A stretch of DNA of 64,000 bases from an uncultured Candidatus Rokubacteria bacterium (lineage in GTDB: Bacteria; Methylomirabilota; Methylomirabilia; Rokubacteriales; DASRDR01): assembly GCA_963826115.1 (NCBI GenBank), contig CAWGVS010000006.1:160001-224000 (forward strand). The letters are read 5' to 3'. Numbering within the stretch: the stretch's first letter is position 1; each line of letters starts with the position of its first letter. Of this stretch, positions 56,790 to 62,773 are shown piece by piece. The position numbers were made by a program, and so were the translations under genes. The notes under the pieces were generated by a model. The model did no database searches. It saw only the letters and a program-made list of their open reading frames with translations, and was not told the origin of the DNA.

Positions 56790-57961
56790 CCGTCCGCCCA
56801 AACGGCCGGCCGCTCGACCAGCTGCCGGACGCGCTGGAGGAAGCGAGCGGCCGGCGCGCCGTCGACGACCCGGTGGTCGAAGGTGAGGCTGAGCGCGACC
56901 ATCTGCCGCGCCGCGATCCGTCCGGCGGCCTCGTCGACCACCACGGCGCGGGCCGCGATCCGGCCGACGCCGAGGATCGCGCACTCCGGCAGGTTGATGA
57001 TCGGCGTGAAGGCGTCGACGTCGAAGGCGCCGAGATTCGAGACCGTGAACGTGCCGCCCCGGAGGGCGTCGGGCGAGAGGGTGCCCGCGCGCGCCTGGGC
57101 AATCAGCACCGCCGACTCCTCGGCCAGGGCCCGGAGCGGCTTGGTCGCCGCGTCGCGCAGAACGCAGGCCAGGAGCCCGCGCGGCGTGTCGACCGCCACG
57201 CCGACGTGGACGGCTGGATGGCGAACGATCCGGTCGCCCTCCAGCGACGCGTTGAGGGCCGGGTGCTCCGTGAGCGCGACGGCGGCGAGCTTCACGAAGC
57301 AGTCGGTGTATGACGGGGCGCGAGCGCCCGCGGCCTGGAGCGCGGCGCGGAGCCGGACCAGCTCGGTGGCGTCGGCGTCGGTGGTCAAGGTGACCGGCGC
57401 GGTCGCGCGCGCGCTCGCGCTCATCCGCTCGGCGATGAGCCGGCGCACCTGACTCGGCCGGTCGGCGACCCCCGCTGCCCGCACGTCCCGCTCGACGATG
57501 CGCCCCGTCCGGCCAGTCCCGCGGAGGCGCGTCCAGTCCACGCGGAGCTCGGCGGCGACCCGGCGGGCCCGAGGGCTCGCCGTCGGCCCGCCGCGCGCGG
57601 CCGGGGTGACCGCCGGGCGCGCGGGCGCCGCCTCCGCGCCGACGGCGGCGTCCACGCCGGCCGCCGGGACCGCGGCGTGGGCGGCCGCACGGGACCGCGG
57701 CCCGGGCAGCGTCTCGCCCGGCGCGAGGACGTAGCCGAGCACCGTGCCGACCGGAACCTTGGCGCCCGGGGCGGGGGAATCGACGGGGATGCGCAGCACG
57801 CCCGCGTCGAAGGACTCCACCTCCACCTGGGCTTTGTCGCTCTCGATGACGCAGACCACGTCCCCGCTCCGGATGGGGTCGCCGTCCTTCTTCAGCCACT
57901 CGACGAGGACACCTTCCTCGCTCGACCAGCCCAGGCGGGGCATGAGGATTTCGTGGGGCAT
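56786..57961 (-). CDS. Dihydrolipoamide acyltransferase (E2)
   Basis: Lipoyl ESDKA, E3-binding ASPRARR...GTG..GRI, TFTVSNLG, DHRVVDGA. Confidence 0.94.
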   Translation of the reverse strand: MPHEILMPRLGWSSEEGVLVEWLKKDGDPIRSGDVVCVIESDKAQVEVESFDAGVLRIPVDSPAPGAKVPVGTVLGYVLAPGETLPGPRSRAAAHAAVPAAGVDAAVGAEAAPARPAVTPAARGGPTASPRARRVAAELRVDWTRLRGTGRTGRIVERDVRAAGVADRPSQVRRLIAERMSASARATAPVTLTTDADATELVRLRAALQAAGARAPSYTDCFVKLAAVALTEHPALNASLEGDRIVRHPAVHVGVAVDTPRGLLACVLRDAATKPLRALAEESAVLIAQARAGTLSPDALRGGTFTVSNLGAFDVDAFTPIINLPECAILGVGRIAARAVVVDEAAGRIAARQMVALSLTFDHRVVDGAPAARFLQRVRQLVERPAVWADG

Positions 57962-57972
57962 CTCGGCGCTGG

Positions 57973-57981
57973 ATCATATCA
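57973..57981 (-). promoter_or_regulatory. Extended -10 promoter of the E2 operon (very short leader)
   Basis: TG-A-TATGAT ending 11 nt before the ATG. Confidence 0.5.
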
Positions 57982-58106
57982 CGCGACTCCGGCTCCTCCG
58001 GGGGGGCGGACCCCGCTTGCGGGCGTCGCGCCTCGGCGGGATGATGGATGCCGTCGACCGAGACGGCCGCACCGCCCCACCGTCCGCCGGGGCCCAGGAG
58101 CATCGC

Positions 58107-59963
58107 ATGAAACCCTTCGTGGTCAACCGCTACGGCCGCATCGTCTTCCCATCCAACTTCTTTCCCGAGCTCGACTTCTCGGTCTTCCAGTCGCTCGACC
58201 AGTTCGCGGCCGTCATCCGCCGCGACTTCGAGGAGAAGGCGCCCACGGAGACCGACATCGTGGCCCGGGTCGAGGGCCGAGGGTACGCGAGCCGGTACGA
58301 GCTGCTCCGCGACCTCGCCCTGAACCTCTTTTGGGTGAACCGCTACGCGATGACGATGTACCGGAAGCAGCCCACGCGCTGGCGCGACGTGCCGCGGTCC
58401 CGGGACGACGTCTTCCTGCCGGTGTTCCGCCAGTGGGACGGCGGGGAGCTGGTGACGGCGATCGAGGCGGGATACCGGGCGCTGCCCCCGACATGGGACG
58501 AGGGGACGGAGACGAAGGTCTTCACGACGCTCCTCGACATCTTCCGGCACAAGAAGGGCGCGGGCGCCGAGCTGCCGGCGCTCAAGCCGACGGTCGCGGA
58601 GATCCTCGCGAACCCGAAGAACCTGACCTACCACCTCCTGGCCTACCATCCGGATTACCCGCGCTACGGGCAGGACGACCTGATCGAATGCGCCCACCCG
58701 GTGCCGGAGCTGGAGGCGCTCCTCCGGCAGGCGATGGTGCTCCACAACCAGTACCCGTGGGATCGTGCCAAGACCCGGCTGATCGAGGTGGGCCAGCTCC
58801 AGGCGGACGACTTCGTGGTGGTCTTCCACCCGCGGAGCGACGAGGTCCTCCAGTTCATCCGCCGGGTGAAGATGCCGCGGCGGACCTGGCCGCGCCGGCC
58901 GCCGCCGGCCCCGACCCGGCCGCCGGTGGCGCCCATGCCGCCGATCGACGTCCGCGCGCGGTTCCGGGTCCTCCCGCGTCTCGAGTCGCTCGCCGTCTAC
59001 CGCGGCGAGCGCGCGTGCACGAACGACGACCTCATCCGGAACGCCGCGTGGTGCTGGTCGCCCATGACCGCGGACGAGATTCGCGAGAAGACGGGAATCG
59101 AGCAGCGGCTCTACTCCGAGCTCGATCTCGACCACATGGCCCTCCTGGCGGCCGAGCGGGCGCTCGCAAAGGCCGGCCGGCGGCCCGAGGAGATCGGCGC
59201 GGTCCTGTTCTGCTCCTGCACCAGCACGCGGATGATGCCGTCGCTCGCGACCTGGCTGTCGGGCCAGCTCGGCATGCTGCAGACCCACGCCTCGGTCGAC
59301 ATGGTGGCCGCCTGCGCGGGGCTCCCGTACGGGCTCGGCGAGGCCGTCCGGCTCCTCCAGGAGGTCGAGCGCCCGGTGCTGGTCGTGTGCGGCGAGAAGT
59401 TCTCCGACAAGATCGGCACGGTGCGGACGTCCCGGATGATCTTCGGAGACGGCGCGGCGGCGCTCGTCGTCGGGCCGGCCCCGGCGGGGGCGCCGCTCGA
59501 CGTCGAGGTCTTCCAGACCTACGCGAGCGGGCCCATGTCCGAGGTCGAGTCGATCGTCTGGCCGAATCCCGACTTCGACAACAACATCACGGTCTTCGGT
59601 CCCGAGGTGCGCTCACTCGTGAAGCGCTACCTGAATCAGATGATCGCCGAGCTGCGCGCGCTGCCGCACCCCGACGGCGGCGCCGGCTCCCTCCTCGACG
59701 CGATCGATCTGATCGTCCCCCACCAGGCGAACAAGACGATGGTCGTGGCCATCGCCGAGGCGGCCGGCATCGCGCCCGCCCGGCTCTACTTCGACATCGA
59801 TCGGGTCGGCAACACGTCCTCGGCGAGCATCCCCATCGCGCTCCACGACGCCGCCCGCGAGGGCGTCCTGGACCGCCCGATGCGCGTGTTCGCCCCGGGG
59901 TTCGGGGCCGGCGCAGTGGGCGGCTACGTCGTGCTGCGCGTGGATCCCGCGATCATGGCCTGA
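58107..59963 (+). CDS. FabH/KAS III-like condensing enzyme with a large (about 280 aa) N-terminal extension
   Basis: KTGIEQR, AACAG (Cys), FGDGAAA, VPHQAN (His), GNTSSASIP (Asn), GFGAG; RBS AGGAG. Confidence 0.88.
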   Translation: MKPFVVNRYGRIVFPSNFFPELDFSVFQSLDQFAAVIRRDFEEKAPTETDIVARVEGRGYASRYELLRDLALNLFWVNRYAMTMYRKQPTRWRDVPRSRDDVFLPVFRQWDGGELVTAIEAGYRALPPTWDEGTETKVFTTLLDIFRHKKGAGAELPALKPTVAEILANPKNLTYHLLAYHPDYPRYGQDDLIECAHPVPELEALLRQAMVLHNQYPWDRAKTRLIEVGQLQADDFVVVFHPRSDEVLQFIRRVKMPRRTWPRRPPPAPTRPPVAPMPPIDVRARFRVLPRLESLAVYRGERACTNDDLIRNAAWCWSPMTADEIREKTGIEQRLYSELDLDHMALLAAERALAKAGRRPEEIGAVLFCSCTSTRMMPSLATWLSGQLGMLQTHASVDMVAACAGLPYGLGEAVRLLQEVERPVLVVCGEKFSDKIGTVRTSRMIFGDGAAALVVGPAPAGAPLDVEVFQTYASGPMSEVESIVWPNPDFDNNITVFGPEVRSLVKRYLNQMIAELRALPHPDGGAGSLLDAIDLIVPHQANKTMVVAIAEAAGIAPARLYFDIDRVGNTSSASIPIALHDAAREGVLDRPMRVFAPGFGAGAVGGYVVLRVDPAIMA

Positions 59964-60014
59964 GCGGACCGCTTCCCGGTTGTCAGTGAGCGCGCGGCGA
60001 GAGTAGGATGAGGA

Positions 60015-60029
60015 ATAGGTCATGCCTAT
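60015..60029. promoter_or_regulatory. Palindromic operator-like site (T-N11-A) upstream of the peptide gene
   Basis: ATAGG-TCATG-CCTAT directly before RBS AGGAGG. Confidence 0.4.
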
Positions 60030-60043
60030 CCAGGAGGGAGCCG

Positions 60044-60190
60044 ATGGACACTCCGGTTCCGGATAGCGATCGCGACGTCGCGCCCGAGCCTGCGAAGCGG
60101 CCGTGGACGACGCCGCGCCTGGTGGTGCACGGGCAGATTCCCGCCGTCACTTTCGCCGCTCCGAGCACCGTCACGAAGACGACGCCCTAA
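60044..60190 (+). CDS. 48-aa putative RiPP precursor with a lasso-type leader motif
   Basis: RBS AGGAGG 6 nt before the ATG; MDTPVPDSDRDVAPEPAKRP-WTTPRLVVHGQIPAVTF-AAPSTVTKTTP matches [YW]xxPxLxxxGxxxxxT exactly. Confidence 0.8.
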   Translation: MDTPVPDSDRDVAPEPAKRPWTTPRLVVHGQIPAVTFAAPSTVTKTTP

Positions 60191-60268
60191 GCGCGCGCCC
60201 GGCACGCTGCGTGCCTGGACGGTTGCGCGGGTGATTGCCATGCGCGGCCGTTCGGCTCCGGACCGACG

Positions 60269-61858
60269 CTGATCCCGCGAGCCTCCGCCGCCGCCCACTG
60301 GCTTGGCCGGGCGCGGTATCTTCGGAGCCTCGCAAGGCTCGGCCGCGCGCTGCCCGGCTACCTCGGCGACCCGACATCGGCTGCCGCCGCCGCCGAGTGG
60401 GTCCGCGACGGCCTCGTGGATCGCGAGCGACGGTTTCTCGACCTGGTCCAGCGCGCCGTGTTCGGGAACCCGTCGAGCCCTTATTTGGCGCTCCTCAGGC
60501 TCGCGGGATGCGAGCCCGGGGACGTGACCCGCCTCCTCGCGCAGGACGGCCTGGAGGGGACCCTTGCCCGGCTGCGCGACGCGGGCGTCTACCTGACGTT
60601 CGACGAGTTCAAGGGCCGCCGCGAGGTCGAGCGCGGCGGCCGGCGGTTCGGGTTCCGCGAGCGGGACTTCGACATGCCGGGCGAGACGCCTGCCCTCACC
60701 GCGGCCAGCGGCGGCACCCGCGGTCCGGCCACGCGGGTCCGGACGAGCTTGCCGCACCTGACCGACCTCGCGCGAGCCACTGCTCTCGCCCTTGACGCCC
60801 ACGACATCGGCCACGCCGAGCACGTGGTGTGGCTCGTCTCGGGTCTGACGGTCGCGCTCCTCACGGCGAAGCTCGGGCAACCGCCGGTCGCGTGGTTCCA
60901 TCCGCTCCCGCTGCCGCGAGGCGCCCGGTTGTCGGCCCTGTACGTGACGGCGCTCAGCCGGATCACCCGGTGCCCGCTGCCCCGTCCCCGGCGCCTCCCG
61001 CTCGAGCGGCCGGAGGCGATGGCGCACTGGCTGGCGGCGCGCGCGCGGGCCGGGCGGGCGGTCTGCGTCACGACCTACGCCAGCTCGGCGGTGCGGGTGG
61101 CGCGGAGCGCGCGGGAGGCGGGCCTCGACCTCGCGGGCGTGACGTTCGTGACGCTGGGCGAGCCGTTCACGGCCGCCAAGCGGGCAGCCGTCGAGGCCGC
61201 GGGCGCCCGGGCGCTGGTCCGCTACGCCTTCACCGAGGCCGGGATCATCGGCTTCGCGTGCGCCACGCCGCGCGCGCCCGATGACCTGCACTTCTTCGAC
61301 AACGCCCATGCGATGATCCTCCGGACCCGGCGGGTGGGAGCGGAGGGCCCGACCGTCGAGGCGCTCCTGTTCACCTCGCTGCTGCTCAGCGCCCCCAAGG
61401 TCTTGATCAACGTGGAGAGCGGCGACTCCGCCGGCGTGGGGCGCCGGGCGTGCGAGTGCCGCCTCGGCGCCGCCGGCTTGACGACGCACCTCGAGTCCAT
61501 CCGCAGCTTCGAGAAGCTGAGCGGCGAGGGCATGACCTTCATCCAGGTCGACCTGCTGCGCGTCCTGGAGGACGTGCTGCCCGCGCAGTTCGGCGGCGTC
61601 GGCGCGGACTACCAGGTCGTCGAGGAGGAGGGCACCGAGGGGATCCTGCGGCTCACCCTGGCGGTGAGCCCCCGCGTCGGGCCGGTCGACCTCGAGCAGG
61701 TGCGAGCCGCCTTCCTGGACGGGCTCGCTCGACAGCCGGGCGCCTCGCGGGCGGGCGTCGAGATGTGGCGGGCTGCGGAGACCGTGCGCGTCGTCCGCCG
61801 GCCGCCCACGGCGACCGCGGCCGGGAAGATCCTGCCGTTCCACGTCGCGCCCCGCTAG
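60269..61858 (+). CDS. PaaK/F390-synthetase-like adenylate-forming ligase; start uncertain (CTG 60269 or frameshift; first GTG at 60416)
   Basis: ASGGTRG (P-loop-like), LGEP, YAFTEAG, NVESGD, RSFEKL, YQVVE, TAAGKILP; protein-like frame continues upstream of 60416 (RYLRSLARLGRALPGYL). Confidence 0.75.
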   Translation: MIPRASAAAHWLGRARYLRSLARLGRALPGYLGDPTSAAAAAEWVRDGLVDRERRFLDLVQRAVFGNPSSPYLALLRLAGCEPGDVTRLLAQDGLEGTLARLRDAGVYLTFDEFKGRREVERGGRRFGFRERDFDMPGETPALTAASGGTRGPATRVRTSLPHLTDLARATALALDAHDIGHAEHVVWLVSGLTVALLTAKLGQPPVAWFHPLPLPRGARLSALYVTALSRITRCPLPRPRRLPLERPEAMAHWLAARARAGRAVCVTTYASSAVRVARSAREAGLDLAGVTFVTLGEPFTAAKRAAVEAAGARALVRYAFTEAGIIGFACATPRAPDDLHFFDNAHAMILRTRRVGAEGPTVEALLFTSLLLSAPKVLINVESGDSAGVGRRACECRLGAAGLTTHLESIRSFEKLSGEGMTFIQVDLLRVLEDVLPAQFGGVGADYQVVEEEGTEGILRLTLAVSPRVGPVDLEQVRAAFLDGLARQPGASRAGVEMWRAAETVRVVRRPPTATAAGKILPFHVAPR

Positions 61859-61984: not shown

Positions 61985-62773
61985 ATGGCCTTCGAGACGA
62001 TCCTCGTGGAGCGCGAGCGCGACGGCATGCTCGTCGTCGTGACTTTCAACCGCCCGAAGCAGCTGAACGCGATCAACCGGGCCGTCGTCCGCGACCTGGA
62101 CGAGCTGTGCGCGGGCCTCGAGGGCGATGCGGCGGCGCGCGTCGTCCTGTTCACGGGCGCCGGGGAGCGCGCCTTCGTCGCGGGCGCCGATATCGGCGAG
62201 TTCGTGGGGCTCACGCCCGTCGAGGCGCTGACGTTCGGGCAGCGCATCCAGCGGCTGTTCAGCCGGATCGAGGCGCTGCCCCAGGTCACGATCGCCGCCG
62301 TCAACGGCTTCGCCCTCGGCGGGGGATGCGAGCTCACCCAGTGCTGCGACCTCGTCCTGGCCGCGGAGACCGCCCGCTTCGGCCAGCCGGAGGTCAATCT
62401 CGGCGTGACGCCGGGGGCGGGGGGGACCCAACGCCTGACTCGCGTCGTCGGCATGCACCGCGCCAAGGAGCTGAATCTCCTCGGCGAGATGATCGACGCG
62501 CAGGAGGCCTACCGGCTCGGCATCGCGAACCGCGTGGTGCCCGCCGACCGGCTGATGGCGGAGGCGCGGGCCATGGCCGACAAGCTCATCGCCAAGGCGC
62601 CGATCACGCTCCGGCTGATCAAGGAGGCGATGAACGAGGGCTACGACCTCGACCTCCCCAAGGGCCTCGCCATCGAGGCGAAGGCCTGGGGCGTCGTCTA
62701 CTCGACCGAGGACAAGACGGAGGGAGTCGCCGCGTTCCTCGAGAAGCGGAAGCCCGTGTTCAAGGGTCGGTAG
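61985..62773 (+). CDS. Enoyl-CoA hydratase/crotonase
   Basis: [54 protein letters not shown]. Confidence 0.94.

Follow-up and report, generated by a model that had tools for sequence, protein, structure and literature searches.

A two-gene locus with a lasso-type leader peptide and a PaaK-fold enzyme as a putative RiPP-like module in an uncultured Rokubacterial genome

A 64,000-nucleotide stretch of an uncultured Candidatus Rokubacteria genome (GCA_963826115.1, contig CAWGVS010000006.1, positions 160,001 to 224,000; G000:C6:160001-224000 in our numbering, hereafter the window) carries a pair of genes on its plus strand, one for a 48-residue peptide with a lasso-type leader and one for a divergent enzyme of predicted PaaK fold. 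The pair stands between a gene fusion containing 3-ketoacyl-acyl carrier protein synthase III (KAS III; 58107–59963) and an enoyl-CoA hydratase gene (61985–62773). Our tentative reading is that the two genes form a module like those that yield ribosomally made, post-translationally modified peptides (RiPPs), in which the lasso-type proteins B1 and B2 would act in trans and the enzyme would transfer a small acid to the peptide core, a chemistry that we infer.

Results

A conserved small gene encodes a lasso-type leader and a short core

The small open reading frame (ORF) of the pair is a real, conserved gene that carries its own translation signals. It occupies 60044–60190 on the plus strand (ATG at 60044, 48 codons, TAA stop at 60188–60190) and its product is MDTPVPDSDRDVAPEPAKRPWTTPRLVVHGQIPAVTFAAPSTVTKTTP (48 aa). 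A Shine-Dalgarno sequence, AGGAGG (60032–60037, +), lies 6 nt ahead of the ATG, and the gap that follows the KAS III fusion gene holds a sigma-70-like promoter (59980–60009, +; TTGTCA, 18 nt, TAGGAT), recognised by its consensus only; 50 shuffles gave 0.0 such sites on average (standard deviation 0.2), compared with the single site here. The first-pass annotation had described a 48-residue ORF with a strong ribosome-binding site and had placed its start at 60008. The ORF and its AGGAGG are borne out, but the ATG at 60008, which is upstream and in frame, falls inside the -10 box of the promoter-like site, and we therefore prefer the 48-residue reading from 60044. Purine-rich, GGAGG-like boxes also precede the peptide ATGs at the orthologous loci of two further species of the genus (G002 and G005) and those of most of the five intact peptides in a more distant genome (G104), where the weakest box stands before the peptide at L050 2472. 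The G+C content at third codon positions (GC3) of the peptide frame is 0.82, the highest of the three plus-strand frames (the others reach 0.67 and 0.60).

Residues 1–37 (60044–60154, +) make up the leader, in which W21xxP24xL26xxxG30xxxxxT36 reproduces every position of the lasso-type spacing that the first-pass annotation had pointed out. Residues 17–37 match two lasso precursor models of NCBIfam below threshold, rhodolasso at E 3.7e-5 (23.3 bits, with the cut-off at 30) and lasso_cyano at E 0.022, and a Pfam scan of the 48-residue peptide gave no match. The strict motif occurs six times in a six-frame translation of the 6.24-Mb genome. Four occurrences are of leader type, namely the ORF in the window and three precursors of a lasso-like cluster described below, and the other two lie in open frames of 861 and 129 codons that have no further leader features. 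Relaxed versions of the motif were set aside, as they returned chance matches in Arg-rich frames (for example at L018, L031, L034, L042 and L046), none of which has a Thr six residues after the Gly.

The predicted core, AAPSTVTKTTP, together with the TAA spans 60155–60190 (+), with the cut after F37 taken over from lasso precursors. It has 11 residues, begins with Ala1 and contains neither Asp nor Glu at any position, positions 7–9 included, so that a lasso macrolactam ring is impossible; the acid-free, non-lasso core noticed at first pass is thus upheld.

The peptide and enzyme genes are linked across species

Orthologues of the neighbouring enzyme in G002 and G005 are 69% or 79% identical to it, and each has a small upstream ORF whose product combines this leader with a short core that lacks acids. 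The two products end in ...KRPWTTPRLAIHGTIPSQTY-GPSQKKNP and ...KKAWSPPRLTVHGALPAMTL-AATGLVPK, both with 8-residue cores; in a multiple alignment they are 50% (G002) and 44% (G005) identical to the peptide of the window, and only the G005 copy was recovered by tblastn. Codons for R, H, G, I, P and T change synonymously between the three species with the residues kept, and the peptide N-terminus and core drift while the leader positions hold. Across the aligned peptides, P24, L26, G30 and T36 are invariant (11 of 11), the cores are 8–14 residues long, and the C-terminal residue varies (P, P and K within the genus; E, H, F, G and S in G104). Identity within the genus is 89–93% for two flanking genes, the KAS III fusion and the acyl-CoA synthetase, and 67–76% for the enzyme; the lower values for the peptide are what is usual for precursor peptides.

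The site between the flanking genes also occurs without the pair. In G009 the hydratase gene directly follows the KAS III fusion with no peptide-enzyme pair between them, and one metagenome contig retains only the last 181 enzyme codons between the same flanks, from which it follows that the pair was gained or lost as a unit. Other genes come after the KAS III fusion in G014 and G003.

A second association of the same kind was found in G104, which belongs to another genus and family of the same class. Its enzyme homologue (53% identity) is flanked on both sides by leader peptides, five of them intact and one degenerate, with leaders of the form ..PYxRPELKRVGxLRDVTA and the cores VTAVSVRGTDATEE, GGLVSGTDAH, QVAASTDF, KASGPSMDGGG and QVAASTDS. 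When 66 homologues were placed in a tree, the genus's three enzymes grouped as one clade (support 100) and the G104 enzyme fell elsewhere, within a subfamily of 23 rows (support 100), so that the presence of a peptide requires two changes on the tree. This would suggest about two independent recruitments, and a single origin followed by losses is also compatible with the tree. A metagenome scan with the enzyme covered 21 loci and yielded no new peptide-bearing locus.

The adjacent gene encodes a divergent enzyme of predicted PaaK fold

The enzyme gene lies at 60269–61858 (+) and encodes 529 residues from a CTG at 60269 or 480 from the GTG at 60416. The latter is the first ATG, GTG or TTG of the frame; homology extends up to approximately 60269, and there is no canonical start codon between the two. 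Pfam (including the AMP-binding family PF00501) and NCBIfam (including the PaaK models) returned no family match for the enzyme at E ≤ 1, the four matches listed being unrelated and sub-threshold, and a phmmer search of the PDB with the single sequence gave 0 hits at E ≤ 10. Among its 322 database relatives, the best 120 are unnamed or hypothetical, and the 16 closest are 67–89% identical to it. A profile of 68 homologues searched against the PDB matched ClxA (2.3e-7), BT_0428 (7.6e-5), a PaaK-like ligase (4.7e-4) and AjiA1 (1.8e-3). An AlphaFold2 (AF2) model of the enzyme (predicted local distance difference test 92.1, predicted template-modelling score 0.90) has PaaK1 (E 6.9e-17) and PaaK2 (E 3.3e-16) as its top Foldseek matches, with template-modelling (TM) scores of up to 0.62 that are held down by domain orientation and an alignment identity of 12–18%. 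Its neighbours in a language-model atlas are clusters that were automatically named coenzyme F390 synthetase, CapK_C and phenylacetate-CoA ligase family. On the profile matches and the model, we assign the protein as a divergent PaaK-fold member of the ANL enzymes, in agreement with the PaaK/F390-synthetase-like assignment of the first-pass annotation.

The protein contains SGGTRGP, YAFTE, ESGD, IRSFEK and AGK, among them the SGGT, YAFTE, ESGD and GK picked out earlier; we take such stretches to be ANL motifs within the series A3–A10, from the known ANL motifs and the HMMER alignment of the PDB profile search. Most key positions are family features: this copy and at least 90% of 66 homologues retain each of the A5 Glu, A7 GD, CxC, A8 RS..K and A10 GK, and in the phosphate loop just one Gly is kept at that level. 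The enzyme shares with the PaaK family (PaaK1, 2y27; PaaK2, 2y4o; BT_0428, 4r1l) the two-domain ANL fold, the CxC, the GD and the Lys of the C-terminal GK, but it is about 90 residues longer and matches no curated model. Ester- and amide-forming enzymes, namely the NatL2 type (6siw), AjiA1 (6wuq) and ClxA (9s3l), are also among the profile matches (E 2.3e-7 to 1.8e-3). The suggestion that a RiPP recognition element (RRE) might be hidden in the ligase N-terminus did not hold up, as there is no PqqD match there at E ≤ 1 and residues 1–104 are almost wholly helical in the model.

The family to which the enzyme belongs has no Pfam model of its own and is present in 17 full-length copies in G000 (for example at C12:54457-55920, C4:235334-236794 and C6:469274-470752) and in up to 32 matches in the relative G003. 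It was found in 13 of the 14 other genomes of the genus and in few other genera, a distribution that marks it as a large lineage-specific expansion. Going by their N-terminal sequences alone, with no family scan, the ORFs beside the paralogues resemble transporters, oxidoreductases and transferases.

Lasso-type processing genes lie 105 kb upstream on the same contig

Within the 64-kb window there is no PqqD protein, no transglutaminase-type peptidase and no Asn-synthetase-like lasso C protein. The one B2 peptidase in the genome scores 88 bits with NCBIfam (cut-off 33) and is encoded at G000:C6:113.1–115.8 kb, 105 kb upstream of the ORF, together with a B1 RRE protein that matches the lasso PqqD model and an Asn-synthetase-like C protein; B1 and B2 are at 115.0–115.8 kb. 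The first-pass annotation had noted that the window has no RRE or leader peptidase gene and had supposed that such proteins would act in trans; the absence is confirmed, and for action in trans it is the presence of the genes on the same contig that has been established. A B2 gene was found in four of four genomes with the peptide-enzyme pair and in neither of the two peptide-less genomes of the subfamily that were checked (G003 and G020).

Downstream of the C gene are three tandem precursors of 164–176 aa (L036 2271-4082, corresponding to G000:C6:111270-113081, minus strand), followed by a gene for an HprK-like kinase. Each has a leader of the form YxxPxLxxHGxxxxxT, in which the first position is Tyr, a core of 6–7 residues, and then a Peptidase_S74 domain (Pfam E 1e-8 to 5e-10), a self-cleaving intramolecular-chaperone domain that begins at SDRxxKE. 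Self-cleavage before the Ser of SDRxxKE would set the C-terminus of a very short core. The same fusion of leader, core and S74 domain occurs in clusters of the same kind in G002, G005 and G014, and PubMed Central (PMC) open-access articles and bioRxiv yielded no report of a lasso precursor joined to an S74 domain. The orphan peptide of the window resembles the first third of these fused precursors (AAPSTVT compared with GPSTIT).

Short free-standing cores also occur in the clusters of these three genomes, and in those of G002 and G005 cores of 6–11 residues, many with no well-placed acid, are the rule. Four tandem short precursors stand upstream of B1 in the G005 cluster (G005:C180, L072 9863-10491, minus strand); their cores, ADPDDLSGIPS, AFDSDSGLPL, DDPDDGSGIPR and QDDDAGSGILT, are Asp-rich and 10–11 residues long, with no acid at positions 7–9. 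From these precursors, the 'lasso' cyclase of the G005 lineage may not be a lasso maker.

Elsewhere in the genome are three pairs of a PqqD-type chaperone (about 148 aa) and an HprK-related kinase (about 355 aa), all outside the window (G000:C1:43402-44900, C12:796997-798512 and C6:833147-834693). The PqqD-type members occupy C1:44454-44900, C12:796997-797437 and C6:833147-833602. Two of the three adjoin glycosyltransferase-like genes, and no precursor with [YWF]xxPx[LIVMFA] was found within 6 kb of any of them. At G000:C5:241300-245604, a small ORF ending ...LPEYEPPRVERVLTPAEIEREFRYAGEPDGTPGL stands just ahead of genes for a PqqD-like protein of 96 aa and a radical-SAM-like protein of 740 aa (CNMRCGHC), which together probably form a separate RiPP cluster.

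Flanking and intergenic sequence

The KAS III (FabH-like) fusion gene upstream of the pair (58107–59963, +; open frame 57744–59963, with 58107 the probable start) includes an N-terminal domain of about 290 residues that is joined by a Pro-rich linker and has no Pfam or NCBIfam match. Across six genomes of the genus the fusion shows 89–92% identity, both where the pair follows and where it does not. The enoyl-CoA hydratase gene (61985–62773, +) flanks the pair on the other side; the examined stretches of G005 and G002 contain no enoyl-CoA hydratase match. We considered whether the KAS III fusion, the hydratase and the acyl-CoA synthetase could be members of a lipopeptide cluster with the pair and rejected this, as identities are 89–93% regardless of the pair and these genes are missing from the G104 locus.

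The spacer between peptide and enzyme (60191–60268, +) folds into GC-rich hairpins, which are no more stable than those of shuffled sequences (z = -1.07 here, +0.34 and -1.00 in the orthologous spacers), and we dropped the idea of a stable hairpin after the peptide stop. A read-through fusion of peptide and enzyme was also discarded: the two share a frame here, with the TAA and 26 codons between them, but not in G002 or G005, so the shared frame is a coincidence. A 10-codon ATG ORF in another frame (60240–60272, +) terminates in a TGA that shares nucleotides with the enzyme's candidate CTG start (cgcTGAtc), and may reflect translational coupling or be what is left of a lost start. Against 59900–60600, the contigs from four DNA runs gave only short pieces, none of which crosses 60049–60245; one of these runs, possibly from the source sample, is identical over 59900–60048 and 60246–60421.

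Discussion

A possible route from leader peptide to acylated product

In the module as we tentatively picture it, the 48-residue product would be a precursor whose leader is docked by a PqqD-type RRE in trans, and the lasso B2 peptidase, also in trans, would cut after Thr36-Phe37. The Thr conserved at position -2 is a known determinant for B2 (PMC10368454). The PaaK-fold ligase would most likely activate a small carboxylic acid with ATP and pass the acyl group to a nucleophile of the core, which could be the freed N-terminal amine, Lys45 or a Ser or Thr, and the product would be an acylated linear peptide of 8–11 residues. We infer the use of B1 and B2 in trans, the position of the cut, the action of the enzyme on the peptide and the type of bond. 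We favour activation of a small acid in view of the other settings in which the family occurs and of its nearest relatives of solved structure, and the occurrence of the paralogues in non-peptide contexts likewise makes it the likely ancestral activity. A complex prediction for the enzyme (68-row alignment) and the peptide (11-row alignment) scored 0.00 in both runs, which had no controls, and speaks neither for nor against binding.

The locus resembles known systems in part. With lasso precursors the peptide shares the [Y/W]xxPxLxxxGxxxxxT-x leader and the Thr at -2, and its genome has B1, B2 and C; it differs in its 11-residue core with no Asp or Glu at positions 7–9, and the locus differs from lasso clusters in that B and C are 105 kb away and the neighbouring gene encodes a PaaK-fold ANL enzyme, not an Asn-synthetase homologue. 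A second comparison is with the linear polyphosphorylated peptides (LPPs), which are described as non-lasso RiPPs of Bacillota (Popov et al. 2026, PMC13381572). According to that report, LPP leaders carry a lasso-like [Y/W]xxP motif to which discrete RREs bind, the choice of RRE in Bacillota depends on whether the first motif residue is Tyr or Trp, and LPPs occur in genomes that also hold lasso clusters (PMC13381572). A lasso-type leader on a non-lasso core thus has a precedent, and the earlier claim of an undescribed class does not hold where the leader is concerned. The split between Trp in the orphan peptide and Tyr in the cluster precursors is a likeness to the LPPs so described and, by analogy, may be meaningful. 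The LPP leader consensus is given there as YxxPxVLxHQxIxFETxxS, with cleavage by an SpI-type signal peptidase (PMC13381572), whereas here WTTPRL is followed by VVHGQIPAVTF, with no HQxIxFET and with the Gly(-8)/Thr(-2) lasso signature retained. Nor do an RRE, an HprK-like kinase, a nucleoside triphosphate transferase and an exporter adjoin the peptide here (an SpI-type peptidase was not searched for). By these features, the locus is not an LPP.

Alternative explanations

A less likely but serious alternative, in our estimate, is that the peptide is a satellite precursor of the distant lasso-like cluster or of a PqqD and HprK pair and that the PaaK-like gene is an unrelated neighbour, in which case those other enzymes would cut, and perhaps phosphorylate or cyclise, the peptide. 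The leader is homologous to those of the three precursors at G000:C6:111.3–113.1 kb and the cores start alike; short, often acid-poor cores are the rule in the lasso-like clusters of G002 and G005; the cluster includes an HprK-like kinase and the genome has three more PqqD and HprK-related pairs; and linear phosphorylated peptides with lasso-like leaders are documented (PMC13381572). The enzyme also gives such an account some support, since 19 of the 23 subfamily enzymes and all 16 of the other full-length paralogues have no peptide neighbour and the G104 enzyme has lost two adenylation motifs. It sits poorly, however, with the finding that, at one syntenic site, peptide and enzyme either both occur or are both missing, and with a second lineage in which a member of the same enzyme subfamily, on a separate branch of the tree, is set among six leader peptides. 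Moreover, none of nine lasso-like loci (L036, L071-L074 and L096-L099) has a PaaK-like gene, and the association is therefore no by-product of lasso-cluster neighbourhoods.

The main chemistry proposed at first pass, in which the enzyme adenylates the C-terminus of the peptide and the N-terminal amine or the Lys captures it as a macrolactam, strikes us as quite improbable and is just one of several possible chemistries. It would give a head-to-tail or side-chain ring and make the enzyme a functional stand-in for the lasso cyclase. The C-terminus is the sole carboxylate in the three Rokubacterial cores, each of which contains a Lys and, once cleaved, would expose a free N-terminus, cores of 8–14 residues suit cyclisation, and the lasso cyclase, as is generally known, also acts through an adenylate (PMC9266682). 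The closest solved relatives, by contrast, are all small-acid enzymes by their entry titles, the C-terminal residues are not conserved, and paralogues occur in non-peptide contexts. No enzyme of the ANL or PaaK type is known to us to activate the C-terminus of a peptide, and this counts against the idea as well. ATP-dependent adenylation of a peptide carboxylate leading to an amide or a phosphoramidate is carried out by MccB, in microcin C biosynthesis, and by the lasso cyclase, whose folds are E1/ThiF-like or Asn-synthetase-like and not ANL. It is very improbable that the ORF is non-functional, either as a chance frame or as a decaying duplicate of a lasso-type precursor that has lost its S74 domain. 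Its resemblance to the N-terminal third of the S74-fused precursors, a GC3 below that of neighbouring genes, an adjoining enzyme with no canonical start and the decay of the locus in a related contig all point in that direction; set against them, three species have an intact peptide in which synonymous changes leave the motif unaltered, a Shine-Dalgarno sequence is present in all three with a promoter-like site here, and G104 has five more intact copies.

Several observations also weigh against the two-gene module that we prefer. Leader peptides were found at only four of the 23 subfamily loci and four of the 72 homologue loci, with 1.5–4 kb of flanking sequence examined and little or no upstream sequence at L013, L055 and L064. 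The co-occurrence of ligase homologues with leader ORFs, which the first-pass annotation had proposed as a check, thus holds in three of three orthologue species and in one distant lineage but not overall. Its wider interpretation fares similarly: the type of leader, the non-lasso core, the PaaK-fold neighbour and the processing genes in trans all stand, and most homologues are without a peptide. The 16 other full-length paralogues lie in varied, non-RiPP contexts beside no peptide genes. Members from Candidatus Fervidifonticultor (55–57% identity), which belongs to another phylum, have an apparent S-adenosylmethionine (SAM) methyltransferase gene upstream instead; in this group (L054 and L056-L060) a class I SAM-methyltransferase-like gene always ends just before the enzyme, as read from the translations and not from a family scan. 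In the G104 enzyme SGEVLG replaces the [ST]GG[ST]xG loop and the A5 Glu is missing, which suggests that it may be catalytically impaired or non-adenylating, or that the contig may be imperfect.

Other difficulties concern the locus in the window and its supposed partners. The GC3 of the peptide (0.79–0.82) is well under that of the neighbouring genes (0.95), and the conserved N-terminal 49 residues of the enzyme have no canonical start codon. The orphan leader has Trp where the three precursors of the cluster have Tyr, and because this position decides the RRE in Bacillota, B1 is perhaps not the partner. Finally, B2 is common, occurring in 64 of 251 genomes of the phylum (a tally that includes one weak match, in G038), 7 of the 15 in this genus and 11 of the 20 in the genus of G104, so the presence of B2 in all four pair-bearing genomes is a weak match.

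Implications

More broadly, though we hold it doubtful, one B1/B2 system may serve several product lines from scattered loci, with the peptide-ligase pair a new RiPP class that was recruited at least twice. If so, one line would consist of very short peptides with a PaaK-fold ligase as a RiPP tailoring or cyclising enzyme, for which we found no prior description, and a second of precursors in which a fused, self-cleaving S74 domain fixes the C-terminus. No paper tying a RiPP to a PaaK- or F390-type ligase was found in PMC open-access articles and bioRxiv, and modification of the peptide by the enzyme, if it occurs, would add an adenylate-forming ANL ligase to the repertoire of RiPP enzymes. 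If the enzyme does not act on the peptide, the locus would still be a case of satellite precursors far from their processing genes, of a kind that cluster-based mining misses. A rule for genome miners would follow if the peptide is indeed a substrate of the enzyme, namely to keep lasso-type leaders with non-lasso cores and to examine their neighbours. The lasso leader with B1 and B2 would then be a portable docking and release module for non-lasso products outside Bacillota, in an uncultured soil phylum.

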